Virus record (IMG/VR): IMGVR_UViG_3300031344_000001
DNA from: a virus
Lineage: Duplodnaviria; Heunggongvirae; Uroviricota; Caudoviricetes
Reading direction: 5' to 3' (one strand)
Length of the DNA stretch: 64,000 nucleotides
Within the stretch, counting starts at the first letter, position 1; each line of letters opens with the position of its first letter. Under the pieces are notes generated by a model that was given only the letters and a program-made list of their open reading frames with translations, was not told where the DNA came from and did no database searches. A program made the translations under genes and the position numbers. Of the stretch, positions 33,622 through 60,086 are shown one piece after another.

Positions 33622-34446
33622 TTACGCGCCGCGCCACACGTGGCCGACGCGCGCGGTCCCACGACCCCACACGCGCCCCACGAACTCGGCATTGCGCATG
33701 GTGTCCTCGAGCCGATTCTGAAGCCCGTAGCGACTGGGACTACGCGCGAAGCGCTGCAAGCCGGCTCCCATCTGCGCGACCGGGAAGGCGACCGCTTGCT
33801 GACGGAACGAGCTCCAGCTCACCGGCGCTCCGTGGAGCCGCGCGATCTTCGGGAGCAACTCGCTGATCACGCCCGGGAGGGAGTGCACCTGCTTGACCGA
33901 CGATCCAAAATCAAAGCTGCTCTCCGGCCACGCGACGCCGGTCTGCGCGAGGACGTGGCGCACCTCGTCCCGCGCCGCCCGCGCTTTGCGCACCCCCGAG
34001 CCCACCTCCGCTTCGACCTCTTCAGGCGAGAGCCACCCGATGTCCGTCGAGCGCCCCGCCACCTTGCTCTTCGCGCAGATCGCACGGAGCTGTTCCAACG
34101 ACGCGCCGAACTTCGCGTCGTCGGGGAAGTTGAGTTGGAAGATGCCCGCCTCCGAGGACATCCCGGGAGAGCACGTGTCTCCACCGCTCTCGATCAAGAT
34201 CCACTGGAGCAAAGCGTCGACGGGTAGATCGCCGGCGCGAGCGGCTACGGCTCCTCGCCAGCGCTCGACGAGCGGCGGGAACGGACCGCCGGGACCGACC
34301 TGCCCCGGACCGACGGGGGCCGGGCGCTCGCGTGGGGATCCGAGTGACGAGGCAGACGCGCCCCTCGAGAGCAGCAGGATCCCGAGGCCCGCGATCGCGC
34401 CGACACCGAGCACTGCTCCGAAGGAGCGATCGCCGCGCGCCACCAC
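33622..34446 (-). CDS. membrane-anchored lytic transglycosylase/lysozyme-like protein
   Basis: N-terminal TM; VERWR, WILIESGG, GIFQL. Confidence 0.6.
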   Translation of the reverse strand: MVARGDRSFGAVLGVGAIAGLGILLLSRGASASSLGSPRERPAPVGPGQVGPGGPFPPLVERWRGAVAARAGDLPVDALLQWILIESGGDTCSPGMSSEAGIFQLNFPDDAKFGASLEQLRAICAKSKVAGRSTDIGWLSPEEVEAEVGSGVRKARAARDEVRHVLAQTGVAWPESSFDFGSSVKQVHSLPGVISELLPKIARLHGAPVSWSSFRQQAVAFPVAQMGAGLQRFARSPSRYGLQNRLEDTMRNAEFVGRVWGRGTARVGHVWRGA

Positions 34447-34451
34447 GAGGG

Positions 34452-35546
34452 CTAGCCCTGGACAGCGCCCTCGGCCACCTGCGGCGCAGCCGGAGCCGGA
34501 GCCTGGGCCTGCACCAGTGCCTCGATCTCCGCCAGCTGCGCCGCCTTGATCGCGGCGACCTCCGCCTGGTTCTGGACCACGGCGCGCTGGCCGTCCATCT
34601 TCACCTGCACCATCGGCAGCGGGCCTCCCACGCGCGCCACGCGGCGCGGCGTCAGCGAGACGTTCCCCACCCTGCGGCCGCCGCCCGGCCGCGGAGCGAC
34701 GAAGCCGCGCGCCGGAGCCGGGCGCGCCGGAGCCGGGCGTGCCATGACCGGACTCCCCAGCGGCGTGTACGCGGCGGGCGCCACGTACCCAGTGGCGCGC
34801 ACCACCGGGATCTCGGCAGGGGCGTCGAGGAGGTCAGCTGTGACCACCTCGGAAGTGACCTGCTCGGTCGCCGCGGCGCACGCCTGGTCGATCACGAAGA
34901 TCGTGTCCTCGGCGAGCTTGACGTTGTCGGCCACGGTCTCCGCCGTACCATCACCCGTGCGCTGCTCCCCGAGGTACTTGTCGACGAGGTGCCGACAGAG
35001 CATGAGCTGGTCGATCGACAGCTCGGGTCCCTGCGGCGCGGTGTGCGCCTGCACCTGAGCCTGCGCCAGCTGCCGCGGGTACACCTGCCGAGGGGCCGCG
35101 GCGCGCGCGCCACGCGGCGCGCTCAAGACGGGCGTCGCCGCAGGAATCTGCGGAGGGCCTCCGTGGACGTTGGACAGCGTCTGCACCTGCGGCCCGTTCC
35201 CCGTCATCTTCACCTGCACCATCGGCAAGGATCCCGCGTTGACCCCGCTGGGCCTGCCGTCCTTGATCACGACAGAACGGTTCTGACCGTCGTCGAGCTG
35301 CGGGCCATTCCCCGTCATCTTCACCTGCACCATCGGCAAGCCCCCCGTCTGGAGGGCGCTCTTGGCGTCTCTCGGGGGCAGGATCTGGACGGGACGCTGC
35401 TGACCCTCCTGAACCTGCGGCCCCGCCGGGGTCATCTTCACCTGCACCTGCGAGAGCGCGCCCGTGCTCACGAGCGGAGGCTTCGATACGCCAGCGGTGG
35501 CGTTCTGAACGATCGCGGAGGTCCTGAGCAACGTAGTGTCGGCCAT
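34452..35546 (-). CDS. hypothetical protein with repeated PMVQVKM motif
   Basis: 4 copies of VQVKM, three followed by T..GPQ; AAGGA SD. Confidence 0.75.
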   Translation of the reverse strand: MADTTLLRTSAIVQNATAGVSKPPLVSTGALSQVQVKMTPAGPQVQEGQQRPVQILPPRDAKSALQTGGLPMVQVKMTGNGPQLDDGQNRSVVIKDGRPSGVNAGSLPMVQVKMTGNGPQVQTLSNVHGGPPQIPAATPVLSAPRGARAAAPRQVYPRQLAQAQVQAHTAPQGPELSIDQLMLCRHLVDKYLGEQRTGDGTAETVADNVKLAEDTIFVIDQACAAATEQVTSEVVTADLLDAPAEIPVVRATGYVAPAAYTPLGSPVMARPAPARPAPARGFVAPRPGGGRRVGNVSLTPRRVARVGGPLPMVQVKMDGQRAVVQNQAEVAAIKAAQLAEIEALVQAQAPAPAAPQVAEGAVQG

Positions 35547-35576
35547 AGAGATTCCTTTCGAGGTTTCGAGTCTACG

Positions 35577-36479
35577 TCAGAGCGCCAGCTCGAAGATCAC
35601 AGACAGCTTCATCTTGTGACCGGACTCGTTGTACACGCTGAAGTATTGAGCAGCGTTGGGGACGTCGACGCGATCCTGGTGATCGGACACGAAGAAATCT
35701 CCGACGCCGTGCTGCCCTTCGGGGTCCTGCCAGAAACGGATCCAGCCGACCGTGAGCGTCGGCTTGGACTGGTGATGGCTGCGGCACCCGATGAGAACCG
35801 CGACCTTGGAGAGCTTCGGCAAGTCGAGCACGAGGCTGTCGGCCTTGTCGTCGACAGCACCCACGAAGATCGTCCGCTGCGCGTGGGACTCAGCGAAGCC
35901 CGGTCCGACGTGCGCTGCGAGGTAGTACGCCGCGCTGGTGCCCTCGATATCGCCGTGCTCCTTGCTCTGCGAGACGAGCGCGCGCACGCGCAAGAACGAC
36001 GCCGTCACCGTCAGCGTCACGCCATTGACGTAGTCGACGACGACCGACGTAGACACGCCGCCAACGCCGAACTCGACGAGAGCCTCGAGGGGCGGCCACC
36101 GGATCGAGTGCTCCGTCCCCGGGAAGGGGCCGGCCGTGACCTCCACGTTGGTCTGCTCTCCGGTCAGGTTCTGCTGGCCCAGGATTTCGCTGACCCCCTC
36201 GAACGAGAGCGGAATCACGCGCGGCGGATGGAGCGTCACCACGAGTTGCAAAGCGTCGAGGTCGTCACCCTCGACGTTGATCATGTCGACCTCGGCCTCC
36301 TGCGCGACCGCGACGTCGTTGTTGTAGACGAGGATCGAGCTCTTGCCGAGAACCCCGCCCATCGCGAGCCGCCCGAAAGGCGAGAGCCCAGGGCGATCCT
36401 CTCCGGGACGCGGGGGGAGCCCGTTGTTCGGATAGAGCGGCTCGATATGGAGCTGTCTGGGAAGGCGCGGATCGCTCAC
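35577..36479 (-). CDS. beta-rich putative virion protein
   Basis: 300-aa ORF with alternating hydrophobic strands, within the structural module. Confidence 0.65.
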   Translation of the reverse strand: MSDPRLPRQLHIEPLYPNNGLPPRPGEDRPGLSPFGRLAMGGVLGKSSILVYNNDVAVAQEAEVDMINVEGDDLDALQLVVTLHPPRVIPLSFEGVSEILGQQNLTGEQTNVEVTAGPFPGTEHSIRWPPLEALVEFGVGGVSTSVVVDYVNGVTLTVTASFLRVRALVSQSKEHGDIEGTSAAYYLAAHVGPGFAESHAQRTIFVGAVDDKADSLVLDLPKLSKVAVLIGCRSHHQSKPTLTVGWIRFWQDPEGQHGVGDFFVSDHQDRVDVPNAAQYFSVYNESGHKMKLSVIFELAL

Positions 36480-36482
36480 AAG

Positions 36483-38045
36483 TCAGCCCCTCGCGGCGCG
36501 CGGGAGCCGCGGCGCGCTCGAAGGCTCCGTGAACGTCCCGGCGGACGGCTCCGCCAGGCGCGAGCCCGACGGCGTGCGCGATCGGGACGACGGCGACCGG
36601 CCCTTGGGCTTCACACCCACGTAGAGGAGCGTCCCTCCCACGGCGGCACCGAGGACGATCAGCGCGATCTTCCCAGCAGAGAACCCCGACGATGGCGGCG
36701 GCGACGACATTCCCTCCGTCGGAGGGGCTGAACCACCGTCGGCCGAGATCGAATCAGGCGACGGTCCACACCCCTGCGGTCCCGACGAACTGTCCGACGG
36801 GTCCGCCGACGGATCCGGTCCCGGGTCCGATGTTCCTGACGTCGGTGGCGCCCCACCGGGCTGCGCCCCACCGGGCTGCGCCCTCGGCAGCGGCCCTTCG
36901 CCACGCTGGTGAGGATGGTGGTGGTGGTGGTGCCTCTGGGACCCTTGCTGAGGTCCCGGCGGGCGTGCCACGCCGAACGGCGACGACCTCGGACCCACGC
37001 TCGGCGACGAAGGCCCCCACATCGGAGGCATCGGCGCGCTGGAGGGCATGGCCCAAAGAGGCATCCCTGGCGGCATTCCCGACGGCATCGGCGGCATGCC
37101 CGGCGGCATGCCCGGCGGCATGCCCGGCGGCAGCCCCGGGTGCATGCCCGGGTGCATGGAAGACGGCGCGACTTGCGGAGGTGGCGCCGGGCGTAGTGGC
37201 ACCGGAGGGCTCACCGGGTGCGTGGGGTACGAGGGATGTGGGGGCGCCGAAGGACCCGCCGTCGCCTGCGGAGGGTGCGGAGGGGACGGCGGCATGCGCG
37301 GCGGCTCGACCAGTGGAGCTGGCGGCGGCGGAGCGTCCTCGGGCACCGGAGCGGTGGCGTCCGCCGCGCTCTGTACCTGGTGGAAGATCGCCAGCCAGAC
37401 CTTCGCCATCTCCGCGTCCTGGGGGATGGTCATGTCGAGCTTCTGACCCGGCTTGTAGTGCGTGGTCGCCCAGAAGCGCTCGTTGGTCTCCTTGTAAAGA
37501 GCCGCGAGCGCCTCCTTCTGCGCCTGGTCCTGCGCGTGAACGTCGTGCGCGTGCCTGTGCGCGCGTTTGTGGACATGCTCGTGCGCGATGTGCTCGTGCG
37601 CGGGGGCCTGCGGCGGCGGCGGATTCTTCGCGACCTCCTTCGAGGCGTCCTTCACCAGCGTGGGCGAGACCGTCGGCGGCTGCTTGCTCGCCGCGTCGCG
37701 CGCCTTCTGCGTGGAGATCTGCTGCGCGGTCGTCGCTGCCGCGATGTGGACCTGCGACGTCGCGGCGTCCGGCGCGGAGGCCGCGACGTCGGCGTGCACC
37801 CCTGCCGCACTGTTCGCCACCGCGGCGTCCGAGAGGTGCTGCGCGACCTCGGGGTGATCGAACGTCGTGACGAGCTTGCCCCCCTCCGCCTCGCTCTTCA
37901 CCTTGCGGAAGATGTCCTGCCAGACCGGCTCCATCGCCTTGTCCGTCGGGATGCGGGGGTCGAGCTTCTGGCCCGGCTTGTAGGCCGTTTGCGCCCAGAA
38001 CCGAGCGTCGGTCTCCTTGTTCAGAGTGTCAGTGCTGATCGCCAT
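36483..38045 (-). CDS. Pro-rich C-terminally anchored membrane protein
   Basis: two copies of [16 protein letters not shown]; C-terminal TM and basic tail. Confidence 0.78.
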
Positions 38046-38132: not shown

Positions 38133-39110
38133 TCAAACGCGCCGCGAGCGGAGCGCGTCCCCCACGACGTCTTCGAGGGAGCGCCGCGGGCGCCAGTCGA
38201 TCTTCTCGGCAGCGCGTCCCGCGGCGGCCACGAGCACGGCTGGATCGCCCGCGCGCCGGGGACCCACCGCGTGCGGGACGCGGCAGCCCGTGACGTCCGC
38301 GACCGCAGCGAGCACCTCACGCACCGTCGAGCCCCGCTCAGATCCGAGATTCAACTCTCCGACGACCTCACCACGCTCGAGCGCGGCGATCGCCGCGAGG
38401 TGGGCGTCCGCGAGGTCCTCCACGTGGACGTAGTCGCGCACGCACGTGCCGTCACGCGTCGGGTAGTCGTCGCCATGGACGACGAGCGGCGGACGGCGGC
38501 CGATCGCGGCGTCGATCGCCAGCGGCACGAGGTGCGTCTCCGGGTCGTGGCGCTCGCGCAAGGAACCGTCCGGGTGCGCGCCGGCCGCGTTGAAGTAACG
38601 AAGTGCCGCCCAACGGACCCCGCGGGCGTGCCCGTACGCGGCAAGCACGACCTCGGCCGCGAGCTTGCTCGCCCCGTAGGGACTGATCGGTCGCCGCGGG
38701 GAGTCCTCGACGATCGGGGATCGTCCTGGCTGCCCATACACCGCCGCGCTCGACGACAGGACGAAGGCGAGTGGACGGCTCGTCGCCGATGTCGCGGCGT
38801 CGAGGAGCGCCGTCGTCTTCGCGAGGTTCTGCTCGAAGTAGAGCGCCGGATCACGGACCGACTCGTCGACGCGGATCCGCCCCGCGAAGTGGACGACCGT
38901 CCCAACGTCCCGCGTGTCCACGAGCCGTCCGACGAGTTGCGCGTTGCTAACATCGCCCACGAAGCGTTCGATCGCGTCTGGAAGCCGTGGCCACGTCGGC
39001 GACGTCGAGAGGTCGTCGATCGCAACGACGCGGTGCCCCGCCGCGTGGGCAGCACGCGCGAAGTGCGACCCGACGAAGCCCGCGGCACCCGTGACGAGGA
39101 TCGTCGTCAA
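38133..39110 (-). CDS. galE: UDP-glucose 4-epimerase
   Basis: GAAGFVG, HFAG, SSSAAVYG, PYGASK, LRYFNAAGA, TCVRDYVHV. Confidence 0.92.
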   Translation of the reverse strand: MTTILVTGAAGFVGSHFARAAHAAGHRVVAIDDLSTSPTWPRLPDAIERFVGDVSNAQLVGRLVDTRDVGTVVHFAGRIRVDESVRDPALYFEQNLAKTTALLDAATSATSRPLAFVLSSSAAVYGQPGRSPIVEDSPRRPISPYGASKLAAEVVLAAYGHARGVRWAALRYFNAAGAHPDGSLRERHDPETHLVPLAIDAAIGRRPPLVVHGDDYPTRDGTCVRDYVHVEDLADAHLAAIAALERGEVVGELNLGSERGSTVREVLAAVADVTGCRVPHAVGPRRAGDPAVLVAAAGRAAEKIDWRPRRSLEDVVGDALRSRRV

Positions 39111-39305: not shown

Positions 39306-40250
39306 CTATGCCCCGCTGGGAGCACCAGGCGGACGCACGCCTGGACCGCCTGGACCGCCTGGACCGCCTGGACCGCCTGGACCCCCGCCCTTCTGCTCGG
39401 GCGGGTTGAGCAGGTTCACGATCTCCATGAACAGGATCTTCTGGGACATGTCCAACATCTGCATGAGTGCCCCCTTCTGGTCCTCACGCAGCGACGCGAG
39501 AAGCTCACCGATCAGCATCGCGAGAGGCGTCGCCCCCTGCGATTCGCCGCCGGTCCCGATCTTCGCGGCGACGACCGTACCGAGTTGGAGAAGCTTCTGG
39601 AACCCGGCGTTGGTGCGCGCGTTCTTTTCCGCAGCCATCGCGATCTGAAACTCGCGGTCCATCTTGTTCGAGCGCGCCTCCTCCAACTCCTTGCGCAGGG
39701 TCGCGCTCTCCGCCGTCAGCGCCGCAACCTGCTCGTGCAGGCTCATGTTCTGCTGACCGAGCACGCGGATTGTGCCCTCGAACATCTGCGCGTTGATGCG
39801 CATGAGCTGGCTTGCGTGGCTCGCGATCACCTGCTGATCGCGTCCGCCGCCTCCGCCGCCTCCGCCGCCTCCGCCTCCGCCGCCTCCGCTGGGCACCATC
39901 GACGTCTCGTCACTGCCGATGTAACCCGGGTAGAGCGCGAACGACAGCGACGCCTTGGTGCTCCCGTGCTGGCGCGTACGCACCACGAAGCGGTGCTTGC
40001 CGGGGGCCTTGGCATCCGCCTCGCTCTCAGCGATGTCGATGATCTGGACGACGAGCTTCTCGATGTTGACGAACTCGGCGAAGAACTCAGGCTCGTCGGC
40101 GCGCTCCCACTTGCGCACTTCCTCGTCGCGAAAACCTTGGCCCGGTGAGTAGAGCAGGTCGACACCAACGAGCTGGCGGTTGTCCTTGCGCGCCCACTCG
40201 CTCATGAGGAAGCCCAAGATCTTGCCGTGGATCTCCGCGGTGTCGGCCAT
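39306..40250 (-). CDS. hypothetical coiled-coil protein
   Basis: 314-aa ORF with Gly linker, heptad region and GGP repeats. Confidence 0.78.
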   Translation of the reverse strand: MADTAEIHGKILGFLMSEWARKDNRQLVGVDLLYSPGQGFRDEEVRKWERADEPEFFAEFVNIEKLVVQIIDIAESEADAKAPGKHRFVVRTRQHGSTKASLSFALYPGYIGSDETSMVPSGGGGGGGGGGGGGGGRDQQVIASHASQLMRINAQMFEGTIRVLGQQNMSLHEQVAALTAESATLRKELEEARSNKMDREFQIAMAAEKNARTNAGFQKLLQLGTVVAAKIGTGGESQGATPLAMLIGELLASLREDQKGALMQMLDMSQKILFMEIVNLLNPPEQKGGGPGGPGGPGGPGGPGVRPPGAPSGA

Positions 40251-40315
40251 GCGACCCTTTTAACACGGCCCTCTCGTGCACCCCTCAGTGCACCCCTCAG
40301 ACACAGATCTCGGGT

Positions 40316-41104
40316 CTACCTCACACTCTCGTGCAACTCCTCGCGCAAGATCTCCCTCAGGGCCTCACGATCCTCAGAAACCCGCGCCCTCGTGGCGAGG
40401 TTGCGAAGCCCCGCGTAGAGCCCTGCCGCCCCCATGATCGCGACCGCCGAGAGCACGCCGATCTTGAGCACGCCGAGGATCGCCGTCGCCTCCGACCCCT
40501 TCCCCTCCGCGCCCTTCTGCCAGATCGTCTTGGGGAGCGGCACGAGCTCGGCGCTCTGGAGAATGATGCCGTGAGCGCGTGCCAAGCCACGCAGCTGCTT
40601 GAGCCGGTTCCACCACTCCTCGAACGTCTCCCAGGTCGTGGCGACCTTGGCCCACCACGATCGCCGCTCGTGCGCGACGAACTCGTTCCACTCGTCGATC
40701 GTCGGCGTCACGTCCGCGGCGAACCACTGCACGTTCGCGGTCGCGTTTGGATGATCCTTGTTGGACGTCTGCCACACGGCGAGGTCGTCTGCGAGCGCGC
40801 GAAAACCCGTCGACAGCTGCGCGATCGCGCGGTCGCGGTCGGCGACCGTGTGGAACAGCTCCTGACCGATCTCGGTCACCGGTCTACCAGCCTCCGATCG
40901 TCCACCGATCGCGCGCGAGGCTGTCCACCAGCGATCGGCCCCACGCCCGGCCTGCGCCACGTCGTCTACGATCGGCAAGATTGGACGGAGAACCGCGCCG
41001 ACTGTCCGATCGCGAACGTAGTCCACCGCGTGGTCGGTACCCCAGCCGAGAGCCCAGTGCCGATCGCGGTCGAGGGGCCCGTAGGTGCCCCGCTCACGGC
41101 TCAT
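40316..41104 (-). CDS. membrane protein (RGTYG motif), related to 45043-46056
   Basis: ATGA coupling; Trp-rich helical domain followed by TM. Confidence 0.75.
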   Translation of the reverse strand: MSRERGTYGPLDRDRHWALGWGTDHAVDYVRDRTVGAVLRPILPIVDDVAQAGRGADRWWTASRAIGGRSEAGRPVTEIGQELFHTVADRDRAIAQLSTGFRALADDLAVWQTSNKDHPNATANVQWFAADVTPTIDEWNEFVAHERRSWWAKVATTWETFEEWWNRLKQLRGLARAHGIILQSAELVPLPKTIWQKGAEGKGSEATAILGVLKIGVLSAVAIMGAAGLYAGLRNLATRARVSEDREALREILREELHESVR

Positions 41105-41556
41105 GGCAGTCTCCCGCGACGCGCGCAGTGCCCGTACTCACCGCGAACGTTTTCAGCCACGCGGGAGGCGCTGACCGCAGCATCCTTCCACACTTCAATC
41201 CCGGCGCGCTTGAACAGGTCCATCGCCTGGTCAGCGAGACCCTGGATCACGTCTCCGCGGATCCACAGGTTCACGTCCGCGCGTCCCCCTGCCTTGACGC
41301 GCGCGATCGCTTCGTCGAGCGAGTAGATCTTCGCGCTGGGGTCGTCATCGCGCAGGCGAAAGATCATCGGTCTCCCTGGGGACGAGGGGCCCTGCATGAC
41401 GAACGAGAGCCGCCTCTGATCCTTGGGTCGCGACACCGCCCCGCCGCCCCCGCCGCCGCCGCCGAAGCCCAGTCCCGTGACAAGGAGGTACAGCCCAAAG
41501 CCCACGACGCCACCGAGCGCAACCTTGCCGAAACCTTCGGTCATCGCGTCAGTCAT
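41101..41556 (-). CDS. membrane protein (C-terminal RGEYG)
   Basis: N-terminal TM; ATGA coupling. Confidence 0.72.
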   Translation of the reverse strand: MTDAMTEGFGKVALGGVVGFGLYLLVTGLGFGGGGGGGGAVSRPKDQRRLSFVMQGPSSPGRPMIFRLRDDDPSAKIYSLDEAIARVKAGGRADVNLWIRGDVIQGLADQAMDLFKRAGIEVWKDAAVSASRVAENVRGEYGHCARRGRLP

Positions 41557-42284
41557 CCGCCGAGGACTCCCTTCATGATCGGGTCGATCTTCTCCCAGAT
41601 CTTCGAGCAGGTCACCAACCCGAAGTACCCGCCCTCACCCGTCGAGACGATCAGCTTCAACTCCAGGACCCTCGGATCCCAGACCGCGTGGAGCTTCACG
41701 TCGTACTGGTGCGTCTCGATGTCCCAAGGGTTGTCCCCAACGACCGACATGCCCTCGGCGCGCAACCGCGCCAAGAGTTGATCGACGATCTGTGAGGAGA
41801 CCCCCGCGTACGATCGGACACCGCACTGCCCCACGCCGAGGTGCGCCAACGCCTGCGCGATCTTCTCCGAGCGCGCGAGCACCTGCGCGGCGCTCTTCAC
41901 GACCTCTTGCCGCTCAGCCTCCGTCCTCGCGTTCTTGGCCGCTTCGGCAGTGTGCTTCGCAGCTACCTGGTTCGCCGCCGTCGCCGCCACCGCATGGTCG
42001 GCGCTCGCGTCCACCGCGGCCTGCGCGGCAGCGTGGTGAGCGTCCGCGACGGCCTGCGGCGCGCCGGGGGTCTGGCGCGTAGCGTCGGCCACCTGCGCGT
42101 GGTTGCCCGCGGTCACGGAGGCCGCGCTCGCATTCACGAGGTGCGCGTCCGCCGCGACGTGCGCATCGTGCGCGGCGCGGATCGCACGCGCGTAGGCGTC
42201 GACGCGCGTGTGCACGCGGGGGGAAAACTCGTACACCGTCAGCCCCACGCCGAGGCCGAGTGCGAGGAGGATCAAAAGGCTCAC
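41553..42284 (-). CDS. membrane-anchored Ala-rich protein
   Basis: N-terminal TM; GTGA coupling. Confidence 0.72.
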   Translation of the reverse strand: MSLLILLALGLGVGLTVYEFSPRVHTRVDAYARAIRAAHDAHVAADAHLVNASAASVTAGNHAQVADATRQTPGAPQAVADAHHAAAQAAVDASADHAVAATAANQVAAKHTAEAAKNARTEAERQEVVKSAAQVLARSEKIAQALAHLGVGQCGVRSYAGVSSQIVDQLLARLRAEGMSVVGDNPWDIETHQYDVKLHAVWDPRVLELKLIVSTGEGGYFGLVTCSKIWEKIDPIMKGVLGG

Positions 42285-42487
42285 GGTACGCTCACAATCT
42301 CGTCGAGGAAGTCGCGCGCGTCGACCTGGGCGACCGCGAAGCTCCCGTCAGGGAGCCTCTTGTGCGACGCCTCGCGGAGCTGCTCCACCGCGTGCGCGGC
42401 CGATCGCGACGCCGCGGCGGAGTCACCTCCACGATCGAACGAGACCGCGTAGCTCGCCGCCCACACGAGCCTCTCCCCGTCCGTCAT
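42281..42487 (-). CDS. small hypothetical protein
   Basis: MTDGERLVWAASY; coupled at both ends. Confidence 0.55.
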   Translation of the reverse strand: MTDGERLVWAASYAVSFDRGGDSAAASRSAAHAVEQLREASHKRLPDGSFAVAQVDARDFLDEIVSVP

Positions 42488-42720
42488 CAGCGATACCTCC
42501 GACGACGACCACTCGAGGGCTCCGTCCTCATCTCCAGACGAGCGCGATCTTCGGCACCCTCGCGCGCTTGCCGGGCGTTGTAGTTCTCGATGCAGTCTCC
42601 AAGGTAGACCGTCCTTGCGCATCCCGACGACGCACGGAACTCTTCGGGCGTGAGCGAGCCGCGCCGCTTCCCGTCCGCGCTCTCGATGACGACCAGGAAG
42701 TCCTTGAACACGTCAGCCAC
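42487..42720 (-). CDS. small hypothetical protein
   Basis: GTG start VADVFKDFLVV; TGATG coupling. Confidence 0.45.
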   Translation of the reverse strand: MADVFKDFLVVIESADGKRRGSLTPEEFRASSGCARTVYLGDCIENYNARQAREGAEDRARLEMRTEPSSGRRRRYR

Positions 42721-42731
42721 GCGCGAGCTCC

Positions 42732-46409: not shown

Positions 46410-46417
46410 GGATCTCC

Positions 46418-49861: not shown

Positions 49862-49866
49862 CCTAG

Positions 49867-50208: not shown

Positions 50209-50419
50209 CAGAAGACTCCATTCGGGCCGGGCCCTTGTGCGGGTGACGCTCTGCCTTGCCTCCATAGCGTGCGTAGTGCTTAGCGACGTCGAGCGTCATT
50301 CCAACGTAGCGCTTCGGCTCCGTACCCTGAGCCCCAACGACTACGCCGTCCCTAACGGTGAGCCAAATCAGCCCCCCGCTGTAACGATCTTTCAGCGAAA
50401 TCTGCTGAGGCTTCGCCAT
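50198..50419 (-). CDS. small hypothetical protein in a direct-repeat-flanked cassette
   Basis: 73-aa ORF; TGATG coupling. Confidence 0.6.
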   Translation of the reverse strand: MAKPQQISLKDRYSGGLIWLTVRDGVVVGAQGTEPKRYVGMTLDVAKHYARYGGKAERHPHKGPARMESSDGE

Positions 50420-50433
50420 CAGAAGACTCCATT
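50201..50433. repeat. 22-bp perfect direct repeat (50201-50222 and 50412-50433)
   Basis: ttcgccatcagaagactccatt occurs twice. Confidence 0.9.
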
Positions 50434-51954
50434 GGTATTCAAGAACGTCCGTGACGTGTGCGGGTACCGCTTGCGATCACTCGGCCGCTCGAGCCACCCC
50501 GTCGCGCCGTCGAGCCCGGCGCACTGGACTACGCCGAGCAGCCCCGACAGCGTGATGCTCGCCGTACCCTCGATCTCCGGGACGACGATCGATCGGTTCA
50601 GGTGCGCGGCGATCACGCCGCCCTCCACCGCGTGCTGGTACGCGTCGGCCAGGTCGGCGTCCAGTGCCGCACGCTGCGCGGAGGCCGAACCGAGGATCGC
50701 CCGTGGGTCGATGCCGAGCTCGGCGAGGCGCTCGCGACGCTGCCGATACTGCCCGACGTGGCGGGACGAAGCGAACTGCGGAGACTCACGCGCGAGCAGC
50801 ACGACGAACGCGCGCCAGGCTCCGTCCGGCACGCCAGCGAGCGGAGATCCCAGTGCGAGCGCTCGTGTCTGGTCGGCGGCCTCGTGGAGTGCCGCGGCCT
50901 CCTGCATCTGGGCGACAGCCTCGGGGGGGAGCCCCGTCGGTTGAGTGCTCGGCAAGGTGTCGATGACGACAGCACGCACCGGCCAGTTGCTGACCTGCGG
51001 AGGCAGCTGCGGGATCGGGTAGCCGCTGTGCCAGCGCACCTCGAAGACCTCCGCTCCTGTGGACGGATCGACGAGCACAACCCCGGCACCCGCGAAACCC
51101 GGCGACTGGCTGAGCTGAGCGGTCACCTGATCGAGCGTGACCGAAGGGTCCGCGACCGCGGGTGCCGCCGCACTCACGGGCGGTGCCGCCGGTGCCGCGG
51201 GTGCCGCGGGTGCCGCGGGTGCCGCGGGTGCCGCAGGTGCCGCAGGTGCCGCGGGCGCCGCGGGCGCCGCGGGCGCCGCGGCCGACGCCACAGGCACCAC
51301 GTCGATCACGGGGGGACGCCCCGACGCCACCACCCTGAGGAAGGCGGCCGGATCGTCGTGCAGCATCGCGAGGATCTCGTCGTGCGTTGCGTAACGGGCT
51401 TCCACCTGCGGAGGAGCCACGTCAGCGACTGCCACCGGTGGCGCGCACGACCCCCGCTGGTAGTCGGCCCACGGATCGCGGGGCGGCGCGCACGATCCCC
51501 GCTGGTAGTCGGCCCGCGGATCGCGCGGCAACACGCACGATCCCCGCTGGTAGTCGGCCCGCGGATCACGCGGCGTCACGCACGACCCCCGCGCGTAACC
51601 CGGAGCGGGCGGTGGCATCGCGCCCGATCGACGCGCGTGCGCGTGAACGACTGGCACGACGAACGCCTGCACGATGTCCTCCACGAGGTCACGGCGCCCC
51701 AGCGCCTCGGCCTCGACGATCGCGTAGAGGATCACGGGCGGCGGCGGAGTCTGGCCGAGACGAAGGATCTCCCCGAGTACCGAGATCGGTCCCGGCAACC
51801 CTGCCGTGATCGCCGGCGTTGGAGCCTGCGGAGGCGGCGCCGCGAGCTGGCGCGAAGGAGGCACGGTGTCGCGCGAAGAGCGACTGGCCGCGAAGGCAAT
51901 CGCGCCCAGTACGAGGAGTGGGAGGAACCACACGACTACCGACCTCCCCGCCAC
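50419..51954 (-). CDS. membrane-anchored protein with PAA and DYQRGSC repeats
   Basis: N-terminal TM; 9-bp PAA tandem repeat near 51181-51280; four RGSC units. Confidence 0.75.
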   Translation of the reverse strand: MAGRSVVVWFLPLLVLGAIAFAASRSSRDTVPPSRQLAAPPPQAPTPAITAGLPGPISVLGEILRLGQTPPPPVILYAIVEAEALGRRDLVEDIVQAFVVPVVHAHARRSGAMPPPAPGYARGSCVTPRDPRADYQRGSCVLPRDPRADYQRGSCAPPRDPWADYQRGSCAPPVAVADVAPPQVEARYATHDEILAMLHDDPAAFLRVVASGRPPVIDVVPVASAAAPAAPAAPAAPAAPAAPAAPAAPAAPAAPAAPPVSAAAPAVADPSVTLDQVTAQLSQSPGFAGAGVVLVDPSTGAEVFEVRWHSGYPIPQLPPQVSNWPVRAVVIDTLPSTQPTGLPPEAVAQMQEAAALHEAADQTRALALGSPLAGVPDGAWRAFVVLLARESPQFASSRHVGQYRQRRERLAELGIDPRAILGSASAQRAALDADLADAYQHAVEGGVIAAHLNRSIVVPEIEGTASITLSGLLGVVQCAGLDGATGWLERPSDRKRYPHTSRTFLNTNGVF

Positions 51955-52739
51955 GAGGGCACCCGCGCGGCGATCTCCTGATCGAGCTGCCTCGGCGTCT
52001 TCTTGCGCGCGTGCAGCTGCATGCCGCGACGGGCCCCCTCCGCGCGCGCCTTGGCAACGTCGAGCTTCTCGTCACGATAGAAGCCGCGGAGTTGGCGGTC
52101 GGTCGCCCCGCGCAGGGCCTCCGGATCGTGGAGCCTCGTGTGGAGGTCGAGCCCCGCCTTCCGACTGCTGTGCGCGTGCTTGCCCCCCAAGCGTCCGTAC
52201 GCTTCGCCGAACCTCTCGCGAAGCCACGAGTGCATCTCGTCGGCGTCGGCGACCTTGAGGACCTGTTGCTTCTGCAAGGGTGCGCTCGCCGGCCACAGCA
52301 CGAAGTAGGCTTGATTTACCGGCGACCACGCGACCTTGAGGCCCTCGGGAACCTTCCACGCGATCTTCTTGCTCGCGTGAATCGTCGCGCCCTTCGGGGC
52401 TTTCTCCTGCTGCTGGTACTTCTTCGGCAAGAGGTGGTCGTAGTTGCCGAGCGCGTGCTCGTCCTCGAAGTCCGTCGTCAGCTCCTCCGCCACGGCCTTG
52501 CGCGTCGACGCAGGGAACAACTGGTGCCACACCTGGCCCGGCGATCCGAACTCCTTGGCGTACTTCTTCGCGCCGGCCTCGACGAGGTAGCCGAACAGCT
52601 TCACGGCGAGGGGGTGCTCGTACGCGCCGCGCGCCTTTTTGGTCGCGAGGTTCTTCAAGATCGACACGTGCTGCGACCTGTGCAGGTCGGCGTCGTTGTC
52701 GATGTAGAGCTTCAGCTCACGGGCTTCAATGGCGCTCAT
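51936..52739 (-). CDS. phage-type hypothetical protein
   Basis: ELKLYIDNDADL...KNLATKKARGAY...GAKKYAKEFG; GAGG SD; C-terminal QLDQEIA. Confidence 0.75.
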   Translation of the reverse strand: MSAIEARELKLYIDNDADLHRSQHVSILKNLATKKARGAYEHPLAVKLFGYLVEAGAKKYAKEFGSPGQVWHQLFPASTRKAVAEELTTDFEDEHALGNYDHLLPKKYQQQEKAPKGATIHASKKIAWKVPEGLKVAWSPVNQAYFVLWPASAPLQKQQVLKVADADEMHSWLRERFGEAYGRLGGKHAHSSRKAGLDLHTRLHDPEALRGATDRQLRGFYRDEKLDVAKARAEGARRGMQLHARKKTPRQLDQEIAARVPSWRGGR

Positions 52740-52787
52740 GTGGACCTCGCCATCATACCTGGCGCGTGCATCGCAATCCGAAAGTAA

Positions 52788-53333
52788 TCAGACACCGTTC
52801 GTGTACTGGCCGCCCATGCCGAGACGCTTGGACGGATCCTCGATGAGAGGGTTGTCCTCGTAGGCGTCCGCGTACTGGTGCCAGCCCGGCAAGCCGACGC
52901 ACACGTGCACCATGCTGATCCCTTCCTCGGGGACCATGTGCGCGGGGTGCCCGAGGCCGATCATCACGTCCTTGGGGATCTGCCGCCACTTGATGACGGG
53001 CTCCGCCGGATGCCCCGCGACGCGCAGCTCGGCGACGCGCCACGCGACGAGGCGGTCGCAGTCACCGTGCCCGTCCGCGAGCACCGCGAGGCAGTCCTTC
53101 CAGTTCTCCTGGCCGGGAGGGTCCTCCTTGTAGCGCACACCCGAAGCGTAGAGCGGCGGGATCGGGTAGCCGAGGCCCTTCTGCGCGCGACGAAGCGCGC
53201 GACGAAGGTGCCACTCGTTCACCTTGATGAGCCCCTCAAGCAGCGGGATGATCGGCGCGAAGTGCCGGTCTTCGTCGCGATCGTCCTCGTCGAAGTGCGC
53301 GGGCAGTGTGATGTGGACCAGCGGCGTGATCAT
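52788..53333 (-). CDS. transglutaminase-like (papain-fold) cysteine enzyme
   Basis: GDCDRL..WR.AEL, HV, DPS..LGM give a candidate Cys-His-Asp triad. Confidence 0.6.
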   Translation of the reverse strand: MITPLVHITLPAHFDEDDRDEDRHFAPIIPLLEGLIKVNEWHLRRALRRAQKGLGYPIPPLYASGVRYKEDPPGQENWKDCLAVLADGHGDCDRLVAWRVAELRVAGHPAEPVIKWRQIPKDVMIGLGHPAHMVPEEGISMVHVCVGLPGWHQYADAYEDNPLIEDPSKRLGMGGQYTNGV

Positions 53334-53509
53334 CGGTAGTGCCCCCGAGTTGGTGGTCTGGAAGGATCTGGCTCGACGGGCTCGGGAGGTGGTTCGTTCT
53401 GCCAGAGCGCCGGACGGCACCCGCGAGCGCGTAGGCGTAGGTAGATGAGGACGCCAAGAAGACCGGCGACGCCCACGCCCACGAGCTTCTGGGGCACCGT
53501 CGCGCTCAT
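53330..53509 (-). CDS. small membrane protein (RGHYR)
   Basis: ATGA coupling on both sides; TM. Confidence 0.65.
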   Translation of the reverse strand: MSATVPQKLVGVGVAGLLGVLIYLRLRARGCRPALWQNEPPPEPVEPDPSRPPTRGHYR

Positions 53510-54186
53510 CGCGCGACCTCCGAGAGCGGCACCGAGGACGCCCCCAAGTCGAACGCCGCCGCATACCAGACATCGGTGTCCGCGGCCTGCTCGTTCGCCC
53601 AGCGTTGCAGACCCGCGCGCGTCCCGAAGATCGTCAGCTCGCTGCCCCAGGGAGAGTCGCGGTAGCCGATGAGCACGCGGTTGACCGCGGTCTGAATCCT
53701 CCGCGCCTGCTCGAGCGCCAGCGCACGGTACGCCGCAACTTGGCTCGCCCCGTAGCCGTGCGAAGGATAGCGCTGCACCGCGGCTGCCACGCCGTACGGC
53801 TGAATGCCGACTTGCGTGGCGCCCCCGTAGTCGTCGACGACGAGGCCCCACTGCGGCGCGTACTGGCGCAGCACCGCGTCGCGCGCGTACTCCGCGTACT
53901 CGGGGTAGGCGTCACCGCCGTAGTAGTCGTAGAGGTACCACCAGTACGCGTACCAGCCCTCGTCCCAGTACGGGAACCAGCGAGGCCACCATCCCCAGCC
54001 CTCGACGTTCGCGTAGTCGTGGTAGCGCTGGTGGGGCCACGGCGGAACGTCGTGGAAGTGGTGCCGGCGGTAGGTCGGGTGTACCGGCGGGCGCGGTACC
54101 TGCGGCAACGGCAACGACGCCGGACGCGCGAGCGCCGACGGCGCCCGCGTCACACCGCGGAAGTCACGCTCGCGAGGAGAGGCCAT
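53506..54186 (-). CDS. Trp/Tyr-rich protein with YAAAFD domain
   Basis: WGWWPRWFPYW tract; WYAAAFD. Confidence 0.7.
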   Translation of the reverse strand: MASPRERDFRGVTRAPSALARPASLPLPQVPRPPVHPTYRRHHFHDVPPWPHQRYHDYANVEGWGWWPRWFPYWDEGWYAYWWYLYDYYGGDAYPEYAEYARDAVLRQYAPQWGLVVDDYGGATQVGIQPYGVAAAVQRYPSHGYGASQVAAYRALALEQARRIQTAVNRVLIGYRDSPWGSELTIFGTRAGLQRWANEQAADTDVWYAAAFDLGASSVPLSEVAR

Positions 54187-54833
54187 CAGAAGCGCTCCCA
54201 GAGGCGGTGGAGCAACTCGACGATCGACCCGCCGCTCGCGAGGATCGCCAGGATCTTAAGGTTCCGCTTGCGCCGGTCTCCCTTAGCCTTGACGTCGTCC
54301 ACCTGCTCCTCCTTGGTCACCTCGATCGCTGCGAGTTGCTGCGACTTGTCGACCTCGACCTTGGCCATGAACGTGACGTGATCGCGCTCGATCGTGTGCT
54401 CGGCGGTCTTCTTCACGAGGCCAAGCATCTCGGAGAGCACGCGATCTTGCCCGTCAAGCTTCCCGGTCGCGCCCGCGACCTCCGTGCGAACGTCCGCCAC
54501 GTTGACGGCGAGCTGCTTGACGTCAGCACGCACGTCCTTGACGTCACCCTTCAGCTCGTCGTGCTTCTTCTCGACATCCTTCTTGAACTCGTCGTGCTTC
54601 TTCTCGAGCCGGCCGATCCGCTCGGTGTCGGGACGTTGCGCGCGGCGCTCGTCGAGCTCGTCGCCCTCGTAGCGGCCGGTGATCTCGTCGCTACCGAACT
54701 CCTTCGCGACAGCGGCGGCGTCACGCTCACGGCGAGCTGCAAGACCCCCCACGTCGCGCTCGTCCTGGCTCTGCATGCGCGATGACTTCTTCGTTCCCAG
54801 GGGTGGTGGCGTTCTGCGACTGCTGTCGGACAT
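54186..54833 (-). CDS. coiled-coil protein with hydrophobic C-terminus
   Basis: EKKHDE repeats; heptad pattern. Confidence 0.72.
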   Translation of the reverse strand: MSDSSRRTPPPLGTKKSSRMQSQDERDVGGLAARRERDAAAVAKEFGSDEITGRYEGDELDERRAQRPDTERIGRLEKKHDEFKKDVEKKHDELKGDVKDVRADVKQLAVNVADVRTEVAGATGKLDGQDRVLSEMLGLVKKTAEHTIERDHVTFMAKVEVDKSQQLAAIEVTKEEQVDDVKAKGDRRKRNLKILAILASGGSIVELLHRLWERF

Positions 54834-55324: not shown

Positions 55325-56125
55325 CTACACCGCCGCCGTGCCGACCATCGCCCCGAAAAAGGGGCAGCCGGACTCGTTGAGGCCGATGTACGTGACCACG
55401 ACGACGACGTCCATCGCCGTCTGCGCCGCCTCGAAGCGGACGAACGTGTCGATCGCGTTCGTCGCGAACAGGTCACCCGGGACGTCGCCCGACTGGACGA
55501 ACTGCGACCGGTTGCCGATCTTGATGTCGTTCACGATCCAGTCGGCCGCGCCGCCCGCCGTGCCCGCGTTCGAGATCACGAAGCGACCGATCTTGAAGAC
55601 CAGGGTCTGCGGGCGACCCGTGATCTGCGCCGACTGCGTCGGCAGGATCGGCACGCCCGTCGACATCGGGAGGATGTCGCGGTTCGCCTGCGTCGGCAGC
55701 GGAGCGTCCACCACCGCCGCGCGCGCTTGGAACGGGAACGAGGGGTCGAACCCGACACTGGGGCCCGTGATGTCGTACCAACCCGCAGCGGTCGCGGTCG
55801 GCGGACCATCCAGCGCCGGGGCCCCACCGGGAACCGGCACCGGTACCGGCACCGGCACCGGCACCTGCACCTGCTGCTGTTGCTGCTGGAGCATCTGGTA
55901 GTAGGCCGCCCAGTAAGCGGCCGGGTCGGGCGCGGGCGCGAACGGCGGCATGCCGCAGTCGCCGTCGCCGTCGTCGCAATTCCCGCCACCACCACCGCCA
56001 CCCCAAGGGCGGTGGTGCGGATGGAAACGACGGCGAGTGCTCATGCGCGGGCCGCCACGACCGACGATGGGGCCGGCAACGTCATGCCACTTGCCGAGGA
56101 GTGCGTAGATTTGGCGGGGGTCCAT
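55325..56125 (-). CDS. putative single jelly-roll capsid protein, copy 3
   Basis: shared 137-aa beta-rich C-domain (55325-55738); fold call is inference. Confidence 0.6.
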   Translation of the reverse strand: MDPRQIYALLGKWHDVAGPIVGRGGPRMSTRRRFHPHHRPWGGGGGGGNCDDGDGDCGMPPFAPAPDPAAYWAAYYQMLQQQQQQVQVPVPVPVPVPVPGGAPALDGPPTATAAGWYDITGPSVGFDPSFPFQARAAVVDAPLPTQANRDILPMSTGVPILPTQSAQITGRPQTLVFKIGRFVISNAGTAGGAADWIVNDIKIGNRSQFVQSGDVPGDLFATNAIDTFVRFEAAQTAMDVVVVVTYIGLNESGCPFFGAMVGTAAV

Positions 56126-56520: not shown

Positions 56521-56522
56521 GG

Positions 56523-57317
<795 letters not shown>

Positions 57318-57318
57318 G

Positions 57319-57993
57319 TCAGACCGCCGCGGTTCCGACCATCGCGCCGAAGAACGGGCAGCCGGACTCGTTGAGGCCGATGTACGTGACCACGACGACG
57401 ACGTCCATCGCCGTCTGCGCCGCCTCGAAGCGCACGAACGTGTCGATCGCGTTCGTCGCGAACAGGTCACCCGGGACGTCGCCCGACTGGACGAACTGCG
57501 ACCGGTTGCCGATCTTGATGTCGTTCACGATCCAGTCGGCCGCGCCGCCGGCCGTGCCCGCGTTCGAGATCACGAAGCGACCGATCTTGAAGACCAGGGT
57601 CTGCGGGCGACCCGTGATCTGCGCCGACTGCGTCGGCAGGATCGGCACGCCCGTCGACATCGGGAGGATGTCGCGGTTCGCCTGCGTCGGCAGCGGAGCG
57701 TCCACCACCGCCGCGCGCGCCTGGAACGGGAAGTCCGCGTACTGCTGCTGCTGGTGGTGGTGCTGCGGCATCGGCGGCGGGCCCATCGGGGGCGCGAACG
57801 GCGGCGGGGCCGGCAGCGACGGGGCGTCGGCGCCCATCATGGCGTACGGGTTGCGCTGGGCGCCGTAGCTGCCGCCGTACGGGCCGCGGTGGCCGTAGCC
57901 GAAGCCGACCTGCGGGCCGACGATGTCGTACCAGCCGGCGAGGAGCGCCTGCACCTGGTGGGGGTTGAGCTGCGGAGGACGGTGCGAGTGCAT
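57319..57993 (-). CDS. putative single jelly-roll capsid protein, copy 1
   Basis: G/Y/P-rich N-terminus plus shared domain (57319-57732). Confidence 0.6.
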   Translation of the reverse strand: MHSHRPPQLNPHQVQALLAGWYDIVGPQVGFGYGHRGPYGGSYGAQRNPYAMMGADAPSLPAPPPFAPPMGPPPMPQHHHQQQQYADFPFQARAAVVDAPLPTQANRDILPMSTGVPILPTQSAQITGRPQTLVFKIGRFVISNAGTAGGAADWIVNDIKIGNRSQFVQSGDVPGDLFATNAIDTFVRFEAAQTAMDVVVVVTYIGLNESGCPFFGAMVGTAAV

Positions 57994-58216
57994 AGAGGAA
58001 CCTTTCGTTCGCGACAAAGCTGTCGCTGCGCGGTCGCGTAAACGCGCCGCAAGAGAGGGAGACGGGTTGGTGCTCGAACCTCGCGCTCGAGGTCGGCTAA
58101 CGACGGGAACGTGGCTCCTCGCACTTGAGGGGCGACGCTCTCGTGGTCAAGCCCTCGCGCGCCGACCGGGAAAGCCGGCGCGTCAGGGCTGGATCACAAG
58201 ATCCAGTGAGTCACGA

Positions 58217-58735
58217 CTACGGGTGCGCCGGGGCCCTCGCGGCCTGCTGCATCCGATGGACGATGGAGGCCATCTGCCCTTCGGAGAGATCGCCGTGCAC
58301 CGCCGGAGCTTCGGTCGGCCAGCCGGGCTGCCCGTACGGATCCTTCCAGGGATGACCGGTGTGGTCACCGAGGACCTTGCCCGTGTCACGCCAGCGCTTG
58401 CCGAACGCGTAGCCCGTCGCAGCGAGATAGCTGCCGATGAGGCCGTTGCCGAGGTTGTTGAAGTGCTCGCTGAGCGAGTCACCCGCGAGGTCGGTGTGCC
58501 CGACCGCGAGGAAGACGGCGCCCGCGAGCAGGTTGACCGGCAGCGGACCGAGCGAGGGTCCACCGAAGCGCCCCTCGATCAGACCGCCGGCCCACGCGCC
58601 CGCGGCCGTCTCGATGGTGCTGAACGCCTTGTGCGAGAAGCCCGCGAAGCGATCGCGCATGCCATCGAGCTTCTTCATCGTCGCGTGATGGCGACGCGCC
58701 AGGTGATGAAGGTGTTCTTCGGTGATGTTGGCCAT
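58217..58735 (-). CDS. membrane protein, paralog A
   Basis: ITEEHLHHLARRHHATMKK plus Gly-rich hydrophobic helices; AAGGA SD. Confidence 0.8.
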   Translation of the reverse strand: MANITEEHLHHLARRHHATMKKLDGMRDRFAGFSHKAFSTIETAAGAWAGGLIEGRFGGPSLGPLPVNLLAGAVFLAVGHTDLAGDSLSEHFNNLGNGLIGSYLAATGYAFGKRWRDTGKVLGDHTGHPWKDPYGQPGWPTEAPAVHGDLSEGQMASIVHRMQQAARAPAHP

Positions 58736-58865
58736 GAGTCCTTTGATCCTTGATCTTCTTGCTCTGGGGGAACGACGGCGGCCCCCGACATGGAGCCCTT
58801 CTGATCACCCACGGCCCGCGCCGAGGGCTTCTCGGGACGGGCCTTAGGCGCAAGCGTGCCGGACG

Positions 58866-59303
58866 CTACGGCGCCGGGGGCGCGCCCTGCGGCCAGCCGG
58901 CGTTCTCGTACGGACGCGAGAAGGGATGGCCGCCACCCCCGGTCAGCTGCTTGGTGTCGCGCCAGCGCTTGCCGAACGCGTAGCCCGTCGCGGCGAGGTA
59001 GCTGCCGACGAGGCCGTTGCCGAGGTTGTTGAAGTGATCGCTGAGCTTGTCGCCGGCGAGATCGGTGTGTCCGACCGCGAGGAAGACGGCGCCCGCGAGC
59101 AGGTTGACCGGCAGCGGGCCAAGCGTGGCCCCACCGAAGCGTCCCTCGATCAGACCGCCGGCCCACGCGCCCGCGGCCGTCTCGATGGTGCTGAACGACT
59201 TCTGGGAGAAGTTCGTGAACTTCTCGCGAAAACCGTCGAGCTTCTTCATCGTCGCGTGGTGGCGACGTGCCATGTGATGGAGGTGTTCTTCGGTGATGTG
59301 CAT
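58866..59303 (-). CDS. membrane protein, paralog B
   Basis: near-identical to 58217-58735. Confidence 0.8.
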   Translation of the reverse strand: MHITEEHLHHMARRHHATMKKLDGFREKFTNFSQKSFSTIETAAGAWAGGLIEGRFGGATLGPLPVNLLAGAVFLAVGHTDLAGDKLSDHFNNLGNGLVGSYLAATGYAFGKRWRDTKQLTGGGGHPFSRPYENAGWPQGAPPAP

Positions 59304-59388
59304 GTTCTTTGATCAGCTGAGGCCCGACCGCGGGCTGCGCGGTACGGGCCACGGCGCGAAGAGCGCCGCTCATCTGTGACTGCCCCTG

Positions 59389-59724
59389 CTAGGGCTTCAC
59401 GACCTGGGGAGTGTCCCCGTGCATCTGCACCTCGACGCGGGGCTGCACGCTCATCTTTTCGAGCTGTGCGCACGCCTCGCGCCCACTGTCGGTCAACCGC
59501 AGCACCCAACGGCTGACGGTCGAGCGAGCCTCGTCGACCAAGATCAACTCGCGATTGGCCAACGAGCTCAGGCCCGCGATGACGCGGGGACGATTCTCCT
59601 CCGCGATACCTTCGATGTGGAGGCCGAACTCCCCACCGGTCTGCATCAAGGTCGAGAGGATCTTGACGTCGAAGGCCGTGAGACCCGCGTGGCGGAGCCG
59701 CCCGAGTGCGTACTGATCCGTCAC
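59389..59724 (-). CDS. winged-helix-like protein
   Basis: LTAFDVKIL..L...LSSL..RELI...LRLTDSGR; GTGA coupling. Confidence 0.55.
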   Translation of the reverse strand: MTDQYALGRLRHAGLTAFDVKILSTLMQTGGEFGLHIEGIAEENRPRVIAGLSSLANRELILVDEARSTVSRWVLRLTDSGREACAQLEKMSVQPRVEVQMHGDTPQVVKP

Positions 59725-60086
59725 GGCGCCTTCTCCAGGGAGCGCAGGATCTGGTTCGCGAACTCGCGTGAGCTGCACTCCGTGCGCGCGTTGCCCCCGT
59801 CGGTGACCACGAAGATCGGGGCTCCGGACTTCGGGTCGGACGCCTCGACGATGTAGAAATGAGGTCTGCGTGCGACCACGGTCGTCTTGACGGGTTCCTT
59901 GACGGACGTCTTGGTGGACACCTTGGTCGCGACTGCCTGGGCGTCGATGACCGAGCGCTTCGCGCGGCGACCGTGGTGCTGCTCGGCCGTGCGCTTGCCG
60001 CGATTGAGAGCGTGGTCGGCCACATCGACACCCTTGTCGATGAAGTCGAAGACGCGATCGATAGCGTCGAGGGTCGAATCCGGCAC
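59721..60086 (-). CDS. hypothetical protein
   Basis: first ORF of the leftward run. Confidence 0.65.
   Translation of the reverse strand: MPDSTLDAIDRVFDFIDKGVDVADHALNRGKRTAEQHHGRRAKRSVIDAQAVATKVSTKTSVKEPVKTTVVARRPHFYIVEASDPKSGAPIFVVTDGGNARTECSSREFANQILRSLEKAP

Follow-up and report, generated by a model that had tools for sequence, protein, structure and literature searches.

A candidate particle-building gene block of jelly-roll and membrane proteins in a very large uncultured soil virus-like genome

Organization of the gene block

The 64,000-nt stretch of IMG/VR record IMGVR_UViG_3300031344_000001 (hereafter, the window) contains a long block of minus-strand genes running from position 60086 down to 33622. 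Among its components are a 300-aa protein, P0001, with a predicted double beta-sandwich fold, and three genes that end in one and the same 137-aa domain. The block comprises 29-31 open reading frames (ORFs) with coding-type G+C content at third codon positions of 0.79-0.90. About 26 kb of co-oriented and often coupled ORFs had been described by a sequence-only reading of the window, and this layout was borne out: nine junctions overlap, with lengths of 1 or 4 nt (ATGA-type) in seven cases and of 19 and 68 nt in the other two, and several further genes are separated by 1-8 nt. Genes past 60.1 kb lie in the opposite orientation. The G+C content of the window is 61-71%, and nearly all of its coding-type frames are on the minus strand. 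A protein identical to P0001 was found on a contig of 461,400 bp, presumably the window's own; the source is an uncultured soil virus-like genome of ~460 kb. The sequence read here is 64 of ~461 kb, and window-wide negative results cover these 64 kb. The genes central to the analysis are as follows.

35577-36479, minus strand: P0001, 300 aa; conserved proline-rich N-terminal arm (1-45), then two jelly-roll-like beta-sandwich domains (~47-195 and 196-300)
55325-56125, minus strand: jelly-roll gene A; profile A2, E = 2.5e-68
56523-57470, minus strand: jelly-roll gene B; poly-Gln/Trp arm and the 137-aa domain with two substitutions
57319-58017, minus strand: jelly-roll gene C; Pro/His/Gly arm and the 137-aa domain, the copy used for modelling
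61096-61509, plus strand: paralogue of the jelly-roll domain, diverged and lacking an arm, located outside the block; profile A2, E = 1.1e-41

Predicted structure and conservation of P0001

P0001 is predicted to fold into two jelly-roll-like beta-sandwiches. When three copies were modelled together, using a broader alignment of 35 rows, the interaction prediction score from aligned errors (ipSAE) indicated binding at 0.83, versus 0.01 for the best of three controls. That mark is reached by 20 of 30 proteins solved as same-chain pairs and by one of 23 solved as single chains, counts that apply only roughly here because an own alignment and three copies were used. At least 84% of the contacts agree between trimer runs, with a predicted local distance difference test (pLDDT) value of at least 81 for the partner. 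In the predicted contacts, domain 2 of each copy touches domain 1 of its neighbour, giving a head-to-tail ring; the same arrangement is known from double-jelly-roll capsomers and also from bicupin trimers. The near-invariant RWPPLE segment (residues 127-132) sits in the predicted trimer interface, interface columns are better conserved than the remainder of the protein (p = 0.02), and residues 21-40 of the arm form its most conserved stretch. P0001 is the candidate shell capsomer of the block.

No invariant His, Cys or Glu cluster hinting at catalysis is present in P0001, and a cupin-type enzyme role was rejected because the protein has no invariant metal ligands. A shape search of the Atlas with the P0001 monomer returned solely carbohydrate-binding and discoidin modules, with template modelling scores of at most 0.40. 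Neither P0001 nor the three jelly-roll proteins carry secretion signals.

The 137-aa jelly-roll domain

The triplicated beta-rich domain noticed earlier closes all three of genes A-C and models as a single jelly roll. Its copies differ by 0-2 residues versus 9-19 nucleotides; the changed codons are synonymous in 9/9, 12/14 and 16/18 cases in the three comparisons, and the protein sequence is therefore under strong selection. The regions upstream of the domain are different N-terminal arms: that of gene A contains W-x-D-[IV]-x-G motifs and Gly/Gln/Val-Pro low-complexity sequence, and the true start of gene B is probably near 57317. The nearest folds to the predicted structure are capsid proteins of membrane viruses. 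The family has 883 representatives, and relatives hold two to five tandem copies of the domain. One 723-aa chain with five copies adjoins an AbiEii toxin-antitoxin pair (L064:518-2689), and in another locus three copies are fused to a KaiC-like ATPase (PF06745, DUF7125; L062:1018-2958).

Parts of the domain also recur in small secreted proteins of ~86-95 aa, encoded in Mycolicibacterium moriokaense GAS496 (NZ_QJJU01000007.1; L057:9878-10135), in an Actinomycetota metagenome-assembled genome (MAG; L056, ~9960-10246) and in a Thermoleophilaceae MAG (L058). These consist of a signal peptide, NDIKIGNRSQFVQSGD, a linker and GRPQTLVFKIGRFVISNG, that is, two strands of the virus jelly roll in swapped order and up to 94% identical. 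The small ORF is present in one of 101 Mycobacteriaceae genomes sampled; its occurrence is thus sporadic, and the gene was probably acquired. It may act as a host decoy that counters assembly, or else hint at the identity of the host.

Membrane proteins and shared peptides

The sequence-only reading counted more than a dozen proteins with transmembrane (TM) helices. A crude scan of hydropathy (windows of 19 residues, mean ≥ 1.6) agrees, with TM segments in 12 products (ORFs at 33622, 36483, 40316, 41101, 41553, 44807, 45043, 46418, 49589, 50419, 58217 and 58866) and four further candidates: a polytopic CmpB-like protein (42732-43133) and weaker segments in 46053, 49867 and 54186. Several membrane proteins are tail-anchored: their large N-terminal part has no signal peptide and is followed by a Pro-rich spacer, a single C-terminal helix and a short tail of basic residues. 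The genes around and upstream of P0001 are listed below.

33622-34446, minus strand: 274-aa protein with an N-terminal membrane anchor (TM 7-25) and a motif like that of soluble lytic transglycosylases (SLT)
34452-35546, minus strand: 364-aa protein directly downstream of P0001, with four L-P-M-V-Q-V-K-M-x-G-x-G-P-Q-like peptide copies
36483-38045, minus strand: tail-anchored membrane protein of 520 aa with a duplicated helical module at the N-terminus, a long spacer rich in Pro, a TM at 455-473 and a basic tail
38133-39110, minus strand: NAD-dependent sugar epimerase/dehydratase within the block (Pfam Epimerase, 3.4e-53); position kept in relatives
39306-41104, minus strand: 314-aa poly-Gly/coiled-coil protein (39306-40250) and, at 40316-41104, a tail-anchored protein of 262 aa whose N-terminus bears an RGxYG tag
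41101-43133, minus strand: translationally coupled small membrane proteins of 151, 243 and 113 aa and the 133-aa polytopic CmpB-like protein; 4-nt overlaps
43178-49375, minus strand: 516-aa (43178-44728) and 985-aa (46418-49375) proteins with a common C-terminal domain and W-x-D-I motifs
49589-54833, minus strand: small membrane proteins with the RGxYG tag; a signal-anchored repeat protein of 511 aa; a 267-aa product with the C-terminus HARKK..QLDQEIA; a candidate transglutaminase-like Cys protease; a protein of 226 aa rich in Trp and Tyr; and a tail-anchored coiled-coil protein of 215 aa

Two short peptides are strongly enriched in the window proteins. The first, N-x-R-G-x-Y-G, occurs eight times versus 0.25 expected, and seven of the eight copies lie within the first 50 or last 25 residues, mostly of small, otherwise unrelated membrane proteins. 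Small tagged proteins of this kind are also encoded between the 516-aa and 985-aa genes. The codons differ between copies, which argues for a peptide-level signal; a DNA or RNA signal was rejected for the same reason. The carriers of this peptide are the following.

40316-41104, 41101-41556, 44807-45046, 45043-46056, 49589-49861, 49867-50265, 13530-14105

The second peptide, W-x-D-[IV]-x-G, occurs six times versus 0.17 expected: four sites are in the arms of the jelly-roll genes, one is in the 516-aa protein and one in a subtilase outside the block. The related GGPWLDIEQVGSPYV is repeated in the 985-aa membrane protein (TM 428-446), where a 45-nt repeat spans 47807-47926. The 516-aa, 985-aa and 226-aa proteins have a common C-terminal module, ...W...Y.A.FD...WP.... 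We speculate that these terminal or repeated peptides, including MVQVKM of the 364-aa protein, serve as docking peptides tying membrane proteins and arms to the beta-sandwich proteins. The 364-aa protein itself has no family match, is syntenic in relatives at 48-55% identity, and may be a multivalent linker or cement protein.

Enzyme candidates and the linked glycan cluster

Support for the two enzymes proposed earlier is weak. In the 274-aa protein at 33622-34446, the E-S...S..EAG.FQ motif, spotted by eye, corresponds to ESGGDTCSPGMSSEAGIFQL. Lytic transglycosylases of the GH23/SLT type have a catalytic Glu-Ser followed by a conserved G-[LIM]-x-Q segment. No match to Pfam, NCBIfam or PDB sequences was obtained for this protein, even at E = 10, and we regard it as a possible wall-cutting enzyme. 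The transglutaminase-like assignment of 52788-53573 has a match to Transglut_core (PF01841) over residues 145-213 that includes a GDCD motif, at E = 0.016 and 16 bits, under the 23-bit cut-off; a transglutaminase-like Cys protease is thus weakly supported. Apart from this sub-threshold match, searches of the block proteins against Pfam, PHROGs and NCBIfam identified only the epimerase and the CmpB-like protein (PF06541, 2e-10), and profile and sequence searches against PDB sequences gave nothing useful.

The block continues downstream on the same strand into a cluster of sugar-related genes.

15912-33670, minus strand: downstream same-strand continuation of the block

The cluster includes a beta-mannosyltransferase-like gene (32264-33670), several methyltransferases (one of them rhamnosyl-O-methyltransferase-like), the subtilase, a family 2 glycosyltransferase (GT2), a GDP-mannose-dehydratase-like gene, two HtrL/YibB-like genes, a 2-oxoglutarate (2OG) oxygenase and a collagen-like protein (15912-16754) with G-X-Y repeats (PHROG 'collagen-like minor tail', 2e-6). 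Of the five relatives examined, four have a sugar cluster downstream of the block, namely three close ones and one whose P0001 is 41% identical; the fifth has a single methyltransferase there. The simplest reading is a glycosylated, fibre-bearing surface. The collagen-like protein adjoins the 2OG-Fe(II) oxygenase (15912-17858), and the two could be a prolyl-hydroxylase and its substrate, as in giant viruses.

Distribution in soil and absence from catalogues

We found 311 homologues of P0001 at E ≤ 1e-3. Among the 120 listed, identity is at least 68% and all are metagenomic, with contigs reaching 410, 428, 431, 443, 461 and 502 kb; a second subclade with 36-50% identity is found on contigs of up to 342 kb. 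The gene order around P0001 is retained in five relatives. Gene-by-gene identities in three close relatives are 31-79%, the best-kept proteins being P0001, the epimerase and the 314-aa and 262-aa proteins (the latter two 65-75% conserved). The 520-aa membrane protein is syntenic in relatives L005 and L009 and unmatched in L007. The gene for P0001 belongs to the conserved core of a clade from soil. A further 10 kb in L070, a distant relative, showed nothing but unknown genes and a single phosphatase.

No match in INPHARED was obtained by megablast of 24 kb, or by tblastn with three queries (P0001, the 137-aa domain and the 314-aa protein) against its 50,697 deposited phage records. Neither P0001 nor the domain had a tblastn match in 72,556 plasmid records (PLSDB), and the IMG/VR set, searched with a single protein and with alignments, contained no relative of either. 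Representative genomes of GTDB contain no P0001 by profile scan and no full-length 137-aa domain. Several JGI contigs are longer than 50 kb, the largest reaching 333 kb, yet both families are missing from the IMG/VR set and the phage records. This distribution, together with the absence from catalogues, points to a lineage that is widespread in soil, very large and uncatalogued. Neither this clade nor any giant jelly-roll virus of bacteria was described in the literature we searched.

Hallmark genes in the window

The sequence-only reading recognised no terminase, portal, HK97 capsid or tail gene. Family scans of ~50 window proteins with Pfam and/or PHROGs, and of ten block proteins with NCBIfam, likewise identified none of these families. 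PHROG 'terminase' matches are confined to the intein of a RadA/Sms-like ATPase or to an HNH domain, and tail-type matches are limited to two, the collagen repeats of 15912-16754 and the Gly-rich coiled coil of 39306-40250 (a tape-measure PHROG at 0.004). No packaging ATPase of the FtsK/HerA (A32-like) type was found in the window, where the RadA-like protein is the sole ATPase; its P-loop is split by a Hint/LAGLIDADG intein. A Walker A motif or P-loop is present in no real gene of 33.6-60 kb. The window also contains several methyltransferase genes and a tRNA array; neither plasmid-type replication or transfer genes nor core genes of nucleocytoplasmic large DNA viruses (NCLDV) were seen in it.

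1089-6983, minus strand: tRNA array of 29 genes, interrupted by an HNH endonuclease gene (3170-3901)
11410-13467: RadA/Sms-like ATPase with zinc ribbon and RecA-like core, lacking a Lon-like domain

Proposed function of the block

We propose that the block is a particle-building module, based on jelly-roll and membrane proteins, of a huge (~410-500 kb) uncultured soil virus, and assign this reading a rough probability of 0.45. We infer that its products are located in the virion and that a membrane lies inside it; each role below is assigned on the same footing. The core of the particle would be a jelly-roll protein shell on, or tied to, a lipid membrane. Ring trimers of P0001 would present six alternating beta-sandwiches, like the pseudo-hexameric double-jelly-roll capsomers, and the three near-identical single-jelly-roll proteins may form vertex, spike or second-shell subunits held by their flexible N-terminal arms. 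Tail- and signal-anchored proteins would link membrane and shell through the N-x-RGxYG, W-x-D-I-x-G and MVQVKM peptides. The putative Cys protease and wall-cutting enzyme could act in maturation and in entry or exit. Glycans on the surface would come from the adjoining sugar cluster, and fibres from the collagen-like protein.

This proposal draws on the predicted ring trimer with its conserved interface and arm, on the selected jelly-roll family whose nearest predicted folds are membrane-virus capsid proteins, on the cytoplasmic, tail-anchored membrane proteins with common tags, and on the conserved linkage to glycan genes. The lack of known phage structural families in the part read and the absence from phage catalogues also speak for it. 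Several observations weigh against it. The fold scores are middling, tandem and fused forms of the 137-aa domain exist, and its look-alike clusters in the Atlas are labelled Viruses/Uroviricota. To our knowledge, all known bacterial viruses above ~100 kb are tailed, a base rate that stands against the proposal, and all known bacterial jelly-roll viruses have genomes of at most ~20 kb. The earlier idea of a large jelly-roll-type virus is partly supported: it fits the fold predictions for P0001 and the 137-aa domain, but no packaging ATPase was found in the 64-kb window.

In a stronger form, the lineage would be the first giant bacterial virus group with a genome-holding jelly-roll capsid over an internal membrane and neither HK97 capsid nor tail. 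P0001 trimers would then serve as capsomers, with the 137-aa domain proteins at the vertices or as spikes. Such a lineage would be a bacterial counterpart of the eukaryotic giant viruses, overlooked by virus detection based on markers. We consider this version less probable than the general proposal.

Comparison with known viruses

Viruses with double-jelly-roll capsids have two eight-stranded jelly rolls per chain of the major capsid protein (MCP), pseudo-hexameric trimers, a single-jelly-roll penton, an FtsK/HerA-type ATPase and an internal membrane. P0001, a ~300-aa all-beta protein with two jelly-roll-like domains and a predicted ring trimer, would resemble the capsid proteins of PRD1/Tectiviridae, PM2 and STIV (Bamfordvirae); P2 of PM2 has 269 aa and the STIV MCP 345 aa. 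Further likenesses to Bamfordvirae are the separate single-jelly-roll proteins, which could be vertex subunits, and the many small membrane proteins with a candidate wall-cutting enzyme in the same operon. The parts list of the block is also similar to that of SPV1 and of HHIV-2, HCIV-1 and P23-77 (Sphaerolipoviridae), which combine single-jelly-roll capsids with an internal membrane. Sphaerolipoviruses differ in having two distinct MCPs beside the ATPase gene, whereas here three copies of the same domain differ in their arms alone, and no sequence similarity was found. The glycan and collagen genes recall those of chloroviruses and mimiviruses. In contrast to giant DNA viruses infecting eukaryotes, chloroviruses among them (PBCV-1 Vp54; poxvirus D13 scaffold), the layout is bacterial, with tightly packed, coupled genes on one strand, and the NCLDV capsid proteins are much larger than P0001.

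Alternative explanations

A very divergent huge tailed phage, with its HK97 capsid, portal, terminase and tail genes in the other ~400 kb, is nearly as likely as the jelly-roll particle. The block might then encode a glycosylated outer layer of decoration or fibres, proteins that sit inside the head or are ejected, or membrane proteins remodelling the host envelope. Genome size, tRNA arrays, inteins, homing endonucleases and a majority of unknown genes are all features of huge tailed phages (>200 kb; Al-Shayeb et al. 2020, PMC7162821). The tRNA array, the intein and the HNH gene of the window conform to this pattern, and the size rule for bacterial viruses and the Uroviricota labels mentioned above point the same way. 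Fibres, cement and decoration proteins of phages commonly contain jelly-roll domains (Pam1, VP1, collagen-tailed fibres in BFVD), tandem arrays and fusions of the domain would suit an adhesin or decoration use, and the collagen-like protein with its 'minor tail' matches belongs to the same strand run. Against a tailed phage, no hallmark of such phages was found in the 64 kb, both conserved families are missing from the 50,697 phage records and the IMG/VR set, and a conserved ring trimer of double beta-sandwiches with a conserved arm corresponds to no known tailed-phage part.

A lysis or egress cassette, in which P0001 would be an exported beta-sandwich like XepA or YomS acting with the membrane-anchored SLT-like enzyme and holin-like small proteins, appears improbable. 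Similarly improbable is a non-viral giant plasmid-like element whose block builds a glycosylated cell-surface lattice or appendage: neither family is matched in the plasmid records, P0001 and the jelly-roll proteins lack secretion signals, plasmid-type replication and transfer genes were not seen in the window, family matches are few apart from the sugar, methyltransferase and nuclease genes, and the packing on one strand is tight. A conjugation or type IV secretion module was rejected because the block has no ATPase.

If the jelly-roll particle is real, a widespread soil lineage of 400-500 kb would break both rules, that large bacterial viruses are tailed and that jelly-roll ones are small. 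It would bear on the origin of giant viruses, and marker-based virus catalogues would be missing a whole class. Even in a tailed phage, the ring-trimer double-beta-sandwich protein, the jelly-roll family and the docking-type tags would represent an undescribed particle layer or membrane system of huge phages.

Additional genes of the block

The protein encoded at 51936-52739 ends in HARKKTPRQLDQEIAARV, with no second copy within the block. Upstream of the jelly-roll genes, the block begins with a small gene followed by a pair of paralogues.

58217-60086, minus strand: two paralogous membrane proteins of 172 and 145 aa, with HHATMKKLDG in common, and the first gene of the block (121 aa)

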